Part shown: piece after piece, positions 6,841 to 7,473 of the stretch
How positions within the stretch are numbered: position 1 is the first letter of the stretch
Layout: every line of letters starts with the position of its first letter
Source of the DNA: a virus
IMG/VR virus record: IMGVR_UViG_3300045988_166899
Direction: 5' to 3' (one strand)
Length of the DNA: 40,002 bases
Translations under genes and position numbers: made by a program
The notes under the pieces: generated by a model
Databases searched by the model: none
What the model was told of the DNA's origin: nothing
What the model saw: the letters and a program-made list of their open reading frames with translations, nothing else

Positions 6841-6903
6841 GTGCCCTATGGGACGTGACCGCCGATGCCTTCATGGTGTCGGCGGTATTTTTATACCTCA
6901 TAT

Positions 6904-6955
6904 TTTACCTATTGGGAATTTTATTCTTGACCTATTTTTTACCAGTTGGTATTGT
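6904..6955 (+). promoter_or_regulatory. second operator half-site TTTACCTATTGG (6904-6915) followed by promoter TTGACC-17-TATTGT whose spacer contains near-palindrome ACCAGTTGGTA
   Basis: 12/12 identity to right arm of cI/cro operator; promoter hexamers read directly. Confidence 0.5.
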
Positions 6956-7399
6956 AGCTTCACGACGAACGGAAAAGGCGAGTGGCGCGGCAACGGCCCG
7001 CCGAAAGCTGGAACCGGACGGAGGAAGCCCCAACAAGTACGGGTGCAGGATAGCTGGAAGCCTCTGGGAGCGGAAAGGCACACGAAGCACAGGAAAAGGG
7101 GTGAGGTGAAGACAATCAGAGCGAAGAAGCCCCCCATTGAGGCGTTGTACCCGGAACTCCCGGCAAGGCGTCCAAACAAGGGCTGAGCACACACGGTTAC
7201 GACACAAAGATCGGGCCGTGAAACGTGATGAAATACGAATTTTACATCCGGGCGGTCAGTTGACTTTCTGACAATTCACCGCCCCGCATGAGAGGCGCAG
7301 CGACAATGCGCGTTGCGCCGAACCATGCGTTGAGATGTGCCGCATGGGAGCGCGCCCCGGCGGGGATTGGCCCCGTCGGGTGCTTGCCTTGAATCATCG

Positions 7400-7425
7400 A
7401 AGCCCGGAACTACGCCGGGCTTTTT
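7400..7425 (+). terminator. intrinsic terminator AAGCCCGG-aactacg-CCGGGCTT + T5, 50 nt before first early-right gene
   Basis: read directly. Confidence 0.7.
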
Positions 7426-7473
7426 CATTGGTTCTGGGACTCCGGAACGAACTTTAACCAAGAGGATACAGCC

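Follow-up and report, generated by a model that had tools for sequence, protein, structure and literature searches.

A conserved, predicted structured leader RNA at the head of the PL-type operon of Bilophila phages: a candidate cis-acting antitermination element

The plus strand of the window, that is, the whole stretch of 40,002 nucleotides analysed here, carries after the repressor gene a DUF3800 moron, the span 6841–7473 with which this work is concerned, small genes, a DUF3799 PD-(D/E)XK exonuclease, RecT, and an integrase (Table 1). The minus strand, divergent from the repressor, encodes a cro-like repressor, a CII-like activator, a methyltransferase, and a replication initiator. The order cI, moron (in the rexAB position), PL, leader, recombination genes, int is shared with lambda, and since it matches, the promoter at 6927–6955 is the predicted PL equivalent and the operon downstream of it corresponds to the early-left operon. 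The label "early-right" that the first-pass annotation gave to this operon is wrong: the operon is PL-type, and it is the opposite strand that carries the cro-like, CII-like, and replication genes. On this map, the span 6841–7473 is the regulatory head of a PL-type operon in a temperate Bilophila phage.

The product of gene 1 is acidic, and genes 1 to 3 revealed no Pfam family and nothing in PHROGs. The third small ORF (8226–8402, +) encodes a 58-aa arginine/lysine-rich helical peptide (…RERLERIRNKARKDSVREAAEQWLRK…) that superficially recalls the arginine-rich RNA-binding motifs of N proteins, a resemblance only, with no family match. Upstream of the DUF3800 domain, within a mechanical 312-aa ORF (5857–6795), two tandem Rfam DUF3800-VI RNA motifs were detected (5866–5918 and 5925–5976, +; 37.0 and 55.7 bits, gathering score 35), and the true start of the DUF3800 gene is probably an ATG near 6030–6040 (MYLMYLDDSG...). 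The cro-like gene (4899..4654, −) appears leaderless, with its ATG 6 nt past the −10 of a TTGACT/17/TATTTA promoter (4899–4935), and TACCTATTGGTA operators surround this predicted promoter.

The mechanical ORFs in the span 6841–7473 are overlapping TTG/GTG frames of 34 to 118 aa that displayed no Pfam match and no RBS-start pairs. No ORF stays full-length across the relatives described below; indels of 1, 2, 6, and 13 nt, together with whole-block replacement, break every frame. Past the start site, conserved blocks alternate with replaced or indel-rich blocks, which makes the pattern a non-coding one. The first-pass annotation had likewise seen no credible ORF here and had named a conserved protein gene in homologues as the finding that would speak against its proposal; such a gene was looked for, and none is preserved in frame.

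In order to sample relatives, we searched with the gene 1 product, which matched unnamed proteins, some attributed to Bilophila wadsworthia, and led to nine IMG/VR loci, all with a homologous leader. Two conserved DNA words retrieved 22–24 viral contigs, and a 5' DNA word retrieved 72 human-gut metagenome contigs. Altogether about 100 relatives, from human-gut metagenomes and B. wadsworthia, carry the same leader. Alignment A2 comprises about 60 distinct versions of its first 155–180 nt, and the covariance model R1 was built from it. A pattern scan of one genome per species across 185,579 species gave 43 matches; the covariance model confirmed two, in B. wadsworthia ATCC 49260 and in one MAG that carries the label "Proteobacteria bacterium", and the other 41 are, by the same model, chance matches in GC-rich genomes. 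No similar DNA was found by blastn of the span against the GenBank phage set, and our literature searches found no description of this leader element. As judged from these searches, the family is narrow, its members being temperate human-gut phages of Bilophila and its near relatives. The more distant loci L016–L018, which encode gene 1 homologues of 58–61% identity, have leaders that begin CTTCACGGCACGG or CCTCACGGCACGG and gave no significant model match, and no homology is claimed for them. In L016 and L017, this start (CTTCACGGCACGG / CCTCACGGCACGG) resembles that of the lineage L010–L015 considered below and is followed by unrelated leaders of 180–290 nt.

The promoter region is preceded by two terminators, the second of which also occurs in its type upstream of the leader in many relatives. 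The candidate PL-like promoter of the first-pass annotation held up, with a score of 9/12 and an extended TG. The operator-like motif TACC-N3-TGG-N-A is confined in the 40-kb window to 4910–4979 (the cI/cro intergenic region) and 6906–6951, a count matched by none of 100 shuffles. Because this motif is common to both places, the same repressor probably acts at, and controls, both the cI/cro region and the leader promoter.

Comparison of the 46 distinct 60-nt upstream sequences among the relatives disclosed a median pairwise identity of 0.40. All 46 nevertheless contain a sigma-70-type −35/−10 pair (8–11 of 12 matches), and in all 46 the −10 hexamer ends exactly 2 nt before YTTCAC; the −60..−9 region is 40% identical at the median despite this fixed −10 spacing. 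The promoter is thus kept as geometry, not as sequence. The spacers hold different palindromes, so the phages are heteroimmune. Since the −10 always ends 2 nt before YTTCAC, transcription is predicted to start near the A of CAC (6962), and YTTC (6958–6961) would then be discriminator and not RNA. In locus L083, CTTC is replaced by GCTC without a compensating change. Both transcription from the 6927–6955 promoter and its exact start are deduced from these sequence features. With the start near A6962 and the AUG at 7474, the 5' UTR would be about 512 nt long, in agreement with the ~500 nt estimated earlier. A promoter scan saw no sigma-70-like promoter between the terminator at 7399–7425 and the genes.

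Directly after the promoter lies a conserved 5' domain, module 1. R1 matches it with 142 bits (E 6e-37) and found no second copy in the 40-kb window; among 24 related loci (317 kb) there is exactly one match per locus. In searches of Rfam 15 with the whole window at gathering thresholds and with 6700–8300 at E<=10, the span 6841–7473 gave no match beyond terminator-like fragments at E<=10, which scored 12.7–18.8 bits against cut-offs of 41–49.5. The fold of the leader has a z-score of −2.8 on the + strand vs −1.2 on the − strand. The GA-rich tract noted earlier at 6960–7140 is real: at 68% purine it is the most purine-rich region of the window and essentially the extreme among its 181-nt stretches (purine tiles, mean 0.488, sd 0.056, maximum 0.691 at 6948). 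It is not a separate entity, however; what appears as a tract is the folded domain's own loops and junctions, which are rich in purines. The search for conserved RNA structure that had been proposed as a check found a two-domain fold without an Rfam match, and the alignments support the prediction that the first ~155 nt fold as two adjacent domains, a 55-nt arm (P2) and a closed, variable domain (P3).

When distinct P2 arms were folded alone, 42 of 43 gave the same single extended hairpin. Its basal pairs are 95–99% paired, vs 24–50% with the partners slid. The apical hairpin occurs in three unrelated sequence versions, all of which are hairpins; in L027 the apical stem has A-U where others have G-C or G-U, and in place of the AA/GR internal loop, L039 and L024 have CC/GG, and L136 and L138 have AA/UU. 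The basal helices of P2 displayed no two-sided changes, and their 5' strand also served as search key; loci found without this key vary only slightly there.

The closing helix of P3 was counted from sequence anchors, because the covariance-model alignment misplaced the 3' strand of P3 in the types with a long interior. Besides that of the window, it occurs as GCCAGCC/GGCUGGC, GCCGGUUU/AGACUGGU, and ACCAGCC/GGCUGGU, around interiors of 70–100 nt that are unrelated to one another. Across four interior types unrelated to one another, six positions are paired at 87–100%, each with as many as 4 pair types, and this pairing was reached by none of 2000 strand shuffles. For the interior of the window's type, RNAalifold gave no convincing conserved pairing. 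The covariation consists mostly of swaps of whole sub-domains, with few independent point compensations. L135 is without P3 altogether, yet its phage region looks intact. A further closing helix seen in single-sequence folds, "P1" (CUUCAC 6958–6963 with GUGAAG 7106–7111), is probably not real: it is 87% paired with no two-sided changes, its 3' strand is missing in tRNA-carrying variants, and the GCTC of L083 is uncompensated. The predicted start site also falls within it. Taken together, the alignments and folds indicate that the span holds a structured leader RNA of the PL-type operon of Bilophila phages that is real, conserved, and so far uncatalogued.

The sequence beyond the 5' domain is interchangeable. 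In the window it comprises a hairpin module and a conserved block (7192–7232), and in relatives the slot is taken by hairpin modules of other kinds, by tRNA genes, by a small ORF directly, or, further down, by a gene of 196 aa. A tRNA-Ser(UGA) and a tRNA-Gln(UUG), or a tRNA-like gene, stand right after the 5' domain in L042 (1746–2302), L045 (11882–12222), L043 (8509–8597), and L033 (4971–5059); ARAGORN reads a two-base anticodon ("aa") in the tRNA-like gene. In L042 and L045 the two tRNAs are separated by a further hairpin-rich stretch of ~200 nt with no Rfam match. The 196-aa gene lies inside the leader of L005 (3034–3624) and of L021, between the 7250–7284-type hairpin and the pre-terminator hairpin, and is flanked by RGGC-repeat-rich stretches (GGCTGGGCTAGGCACGGCGGGGCGGGGCGAGGC...).

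The 3' part of the leader (7250–7430) is nearly invariant where present and consists of stable hairpins with the terminator last. Its 58-nt two-hairpin block is missing in 5 distinct relatives and replaced in L009 and L125. L083 has a compensatory change of G-C to A-U in the hairpin at 7352–7383, and in L035 a U-run follows the hairpin of this type. The strong terminator that had been proposed just before the first RBS (GAAGCCCGG/CCGGGCUUU) is present, with its stem at 7399–7423 and a T-run (T5) to 7425; one terminator scan missed it and a second recovered it. In relatives its stem is invariant and its loop variable, except in L007–L009, where a C-to-A mismatch weakens the stem. The terminators proposed after the next two genes stood in part: gene 2 is followed by a canonical one, whereas the hairpin after gene 1 (7820–7838, −15.1 kcal/mol) is without a U-tract. 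An intergenic cassette recurs after early genes, made of CCTAGCCCCG, a GC-rich hairpin with or without a U-tract, GGGATTGGGA, and then the next RBS; it occurs in the window at 7805–7866 and 8141–8200 (+) and also in L001, L013, and L041. GGGATTGG is present as well in the loop and stem of the hairpin at 7363–7370. As a recurring GGGATTGG(GA) motif near three hairpins (7363, 7845, 8183) it was rejected, as relaxed patterns did not reach significance and relatives do not conserve the stem that goes with it.

Table 1. Features of the leader and its surroundings; positions are those of the window.
Feature	Position	Strand	Details and basis
Repressor (cI)	4990–5724		HTH + S24-peptidase; Pfam domains
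First terminator, closing the DUF3800 moron	6816–6840	+	7-bp GC stem + T6; dG −14.3 kcal/mol
Second, stronger insulating terminator, directly before promoter	6858–6892	+	12-bp stem + T5; dG −23.3 kcal/mol, z −6.0
Operator-like site TACCTATTGGGA	6906–6917	+	motif search
Predicted PL-type promoter	6927–6955	+	−35 TTGACC (6927–6932), 17-nt spacer, extended TG, −10 TATTGT (6950–6955)
Palindromic operator TACCAGTTGGTA over spacer and −10	6940–6951	.	motif search
Predicted transcription start, A	6962	+	7 nt past −10; from −10 spacing in relatives
Conserved 5' leader domain, module 1	6958–7116	+	one copy per phage; alignment, covariance model
Arm P2	6966–7020	+	CG/CG, CGG/CCG, GGC/GCU + apical hairpin 6983–7003, purine-rich internal loops between
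Conserved purine linker GAGGAA between P2 and P3	7021–7026	+	A65, G66, A68 invariant; G67, A69 >=90%
Domain P3	7027–7102	+	closing helix GCCCC (7027–7031)/GGGGU (7098–7102); variable purine-rich interior
Variable slot + conserved block	7117–7249	+	block CACGGTTACGAC...GGGCCGTGAAACGTGATGAA (7192–7232); comparison of relatives
Hairpin GGGCGGU...ACCGCCC	7250–7284	+	dG −18.4 kcal/mol, z −3.9; conserved
Dispensable two-hairpin block	7284–7350	+	direct repeat CCGCATG[AG]GAG at edges (7284–7294, 7340–7350)
GC hairpin, AUUGG loop	7352–7383	+	10 bp, 16 nt before terminator; dG −25.8 kcal/mol
Intrinsic terminator ahead of first RBS	7399–7425	+	9-bp stem; dG −15.4 kcal/mol, z −3.1
Gene 1 (95 aa, no family), RBS and start	7460–7476	+	RBS AAGAGGA + ATG (7474)
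Next canonical terminator, after gene 2	8153–8178	+	dG −18.6
Further sense terminators	10303–10323, 11220–11242	+	
Integrase	15034–16092	+	

Terminators are abundant in the operon that the leader heads. Sense terminator-like hairpins number 7 in the PL-type operon (6958–16100) vs 2 antisense, and the PR-type operon has none. At least 1 perfect-stem terminator lies within 3 kb downstream in 51 of 55 distinct relatives, with a mean of 1.9 sense vs 0.76 antisense. The only close relatives lacking the RNA form one B. wadsworthia prophage lineage, L010–L015, in which only TTCACGACGAACGG follows the promoter, then an RBS (L013, 2600–2680); their early genes overlap, with no terminator in 3 kb. This negative association, no RNA and no terminators, comes from a single lineage. 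Since the first 11–14 transcribed nt are kept there despite the loss of the fold, part of the sharp conservation boundary reflects promoter or start-site function. Elsewhere the leader RNA persists although the promoters before it are heteroimmune and the first genes after it differ; no linked protein partner is therefore conserved beside the RNA.

The arrangement recalls the put sites of phage HK022, where putL and putR form the start of early transcripts. Like putL, the leader lies directly downstream of a repressor-controlled PL promoter, and the fold of put sets in no more than a few nt from the 5' end (PMC9378689), as arm P2 starts about 5 nt past the predicted start here. Both have two adjacent stem-loop domains joined by a short linker, with terminators later in the early operon, and neither has a dedicated protein gene linked to the RNA (PMC9378689). 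In contrast, put is about 70–74 nt long with two stem-loops, whereas the leader domain has 155–180 nt in domains unequal in size and shape, the second of them large and variable. No sequence similarity to put was detected by blastn against the GenBank phage set, which includes HK022-type phages; putL and putR are a pair similar in sequence, whereas in the window and the 24 loci the element is single copy with no putR equivalent. The host is a member of the Desulfovibrionaceae, not an enterobacterium. The put RNA, acting alone, suppresses pausing and termination through its binding to the zinc-binding domain of the RNA polymerase beta' subunit, while the likeness described here is one of sequence-derived features.

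With lambda nutL and the N leader, the element shares its map position, a long structured leader, and terminators within the PL operon. Neither a boxA/boxB pair, looked for by eye, nor an N-like first gene was recognised, a comparison in which N is too divergent for a decisive negative. Unlike lambda N, an operon-encoded factor could not be made first, because the terminator precedes all ORFs.

Among plasmid and chromosomal systems, conAn2 of pLS20-type conjugative plasmids is a poorly conserved RNA of 260–600 bp that confers antitermination in cis and, like the present leader, is a large RNA heading a long operon studded with terminators (PMC8191782). It differs in that conAn2 follows the conAn1 gene, whose protein gives processivity, whereas nothing is encoded here between promoter and RNA; the upstream genes are cI and DUF3800, each closed by terminators, and no conAn1-type gene is among them. 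The conAn system belongs to Gram-positive plasmids rather than to a phage, and the two RNAs are unrelated in sequence. EAR (eps-associated RNA) of Bacilli is, as summarised in PMC8191782, a structured cis RNA for which processive antitermination without a dedicated protein has been proposed. It is found within or upstream of exopolysaccharide operons of Bacilli, and no Rfam match occurs in our span.

These comparisons suggest a model in which the leader acts in cis as a put/nut-like processive antitermination element, which we regard as the best reading, at a little short of an even chance. The two upstream terminators would insulate the leader from cI and moron transcription, and the repressor-controlled sigma-70 promoter at 6927–6955 would start the RNA near 6962. 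The first ~155 nt may then fold into the arm and the closed domain, followed by more hairpins and by the terminator at 7399–7425 ahead of all ORFs. The conserved 5' domain, made first, would modify the transcribing RNA polymerase, either directly, as with HK022 put RNA, or with the help of a factor from host or phage, as happens at lambda nut. Polymerases from this promoter could thereby pass the leader terminator and the later terminators of the recombination/integrase operon, and stray transcription from elsewhere would be halted at the operon terminators. Operons with multiple internal terminators exist with or without antitermination systems (PMC8955417). Internal terminators combined with an antitermination signal at the operon start suppress spurious transcription, which fits an operon silent in the lysogen. 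The activity of put is independent of a transcript tether (PMC9378689), and the tolerance of variable cargo, including tRNA genes that would be excised from the transcript, fits a signal that stays on the polymerase.

This favoured reading was weighed against four others. The leader could be a free ncRNA of ~464 nt (6962–7425), or a processed piece of ~155 nt, made in bulk on derepression and acting in trans (for instance, it might bind a host protein or counter a host defence), with the operon transcribed via leak through the terminator. We consider this unlikely. The strong terminator that ends the RNA before any ORF would suit it, as would the conserved purine-rich loops and a separable 5' domain, which processing would release where tRNA genes follow directly; the leading early region of phages often holds host-takeover functions. 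However, no target complementarity or partner was identified, the RNA is always exactly at the operon start and nowhere else in the window and the 24 loci, and a trans role alone does not account for the terminator load of the operon. GGA (CsrA-type) motifs are not enriched (10 observed vs 6.7 expected, p 0.075); a CsrA-type sponge was rejected, the count not being above the composition expectation. More improbable is a passive leader in which the 5' hairpin blocks decay that depends on the 5' end, Rho fails to load on the 500 nt because they are G-rich, folded, and untranslated, the terminator is leaky, and hairpins near the RBS tune translation. The position of P2 near the predicted 5' end agrees with this, as does the excess of G over C across 6900–7200 (GC skew +0.15 to +0.17), and the N leader of lambda is likewise long and structured. 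For protection, however, a hairpin would require neither a length of 155 nt nor loops and junctions of conserved sequence; conservation across heteroimmune, mosaic phages exceeds what such a role needs, and a 30-nt leader suffices in L013-type phages.

A conditional attenuator, in which the folded domain responds to a ligand, protein, or tRNA and sets formation of the 7399–7425 terminator in the manner of a riboswitch, is very unlikely in our view. The junction-type fold with conserved unpaired purines and variable periphery, in a 5' UTR that closes in a terminator, is what such an element would look like, but the gap between domain and terminator is about 280 nt and admits interchangeable modules, tRNAs, or a 900-nt gene (L005). 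For the terminator stem we found no alternative partner that is conserved, the sole candidate being the 6-nt CCGGGC at 7249–7254, spotted by reading; there is no Rfam riboswitch match at E<=10, and some relatives have the domain without a 7399–7425-type terminator. Hardly probable at all is a hidden small protein gene or a site that acts as DNA, for instance a recombination hotspot or an origin, in place of an RNA element. The mechanical ORFs exist, and module boundaries are recombination junctions, for example at CCGCATG[AG]GAG, but no ORF is preserved and there are neither RBS-start pairs nor family matches; helices are kept through replacement and compensatory change, on one strand only by the z-scores given above. 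The antitermination reading itself has evidence against it: the element departs from put in size, copy number, and sequence, L135 does without P3, the terminator is weakened in L007–L009, and the association of leader loss with terminator loss comes from one lineage.

The original proposal of a long non-coding leader with a put/nut-like cis RNA, a protein factor, or an embedded sRNA is thus borne out as far as a conserved folded RNA at the nutL/putL position, a terminator before every ORF, and more terminators downstream are concerned. Its antitermination half draws on position, terminator load, and the one terminator-free lineage lacking the RNA, so that antitermination by the leader is, for now, something we infer from sequence. 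A more specific version, that 6962–7116 represents an unrelated class of RNA-only processive antiterminator, put-like and native to Desulfovibrionaceae gut phages, with a "licence" to read through borne only by transcripts from the repressor-controlled promoter, strikes us as rather doubtful. The leader RNA is accordingly put forward as a candidate for a new kind of cis-acting antitermination element.

Whatever its function, the leader represents a structured RNA family that is so far uncatalogued, with a clear modular anatomy and about 60 distinct variants in nature, and it marks a hotspot for the insertion of tRNAs and small genes in these phages. RNA-based processive antiterminators are few; a 2021 paper counts put, EAR, and conAn2 (PMC8191782), all of them from enterobacterial phages or Firmicutes. 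If antitermination by the leader is true, it would provide a compact, testable element directed at RNA polymerase, from a gut anaerobe of clinical relevance, and a distinct element at the same map position in B. wadsworthia phages would suggest that this strategy arose repeatedly.
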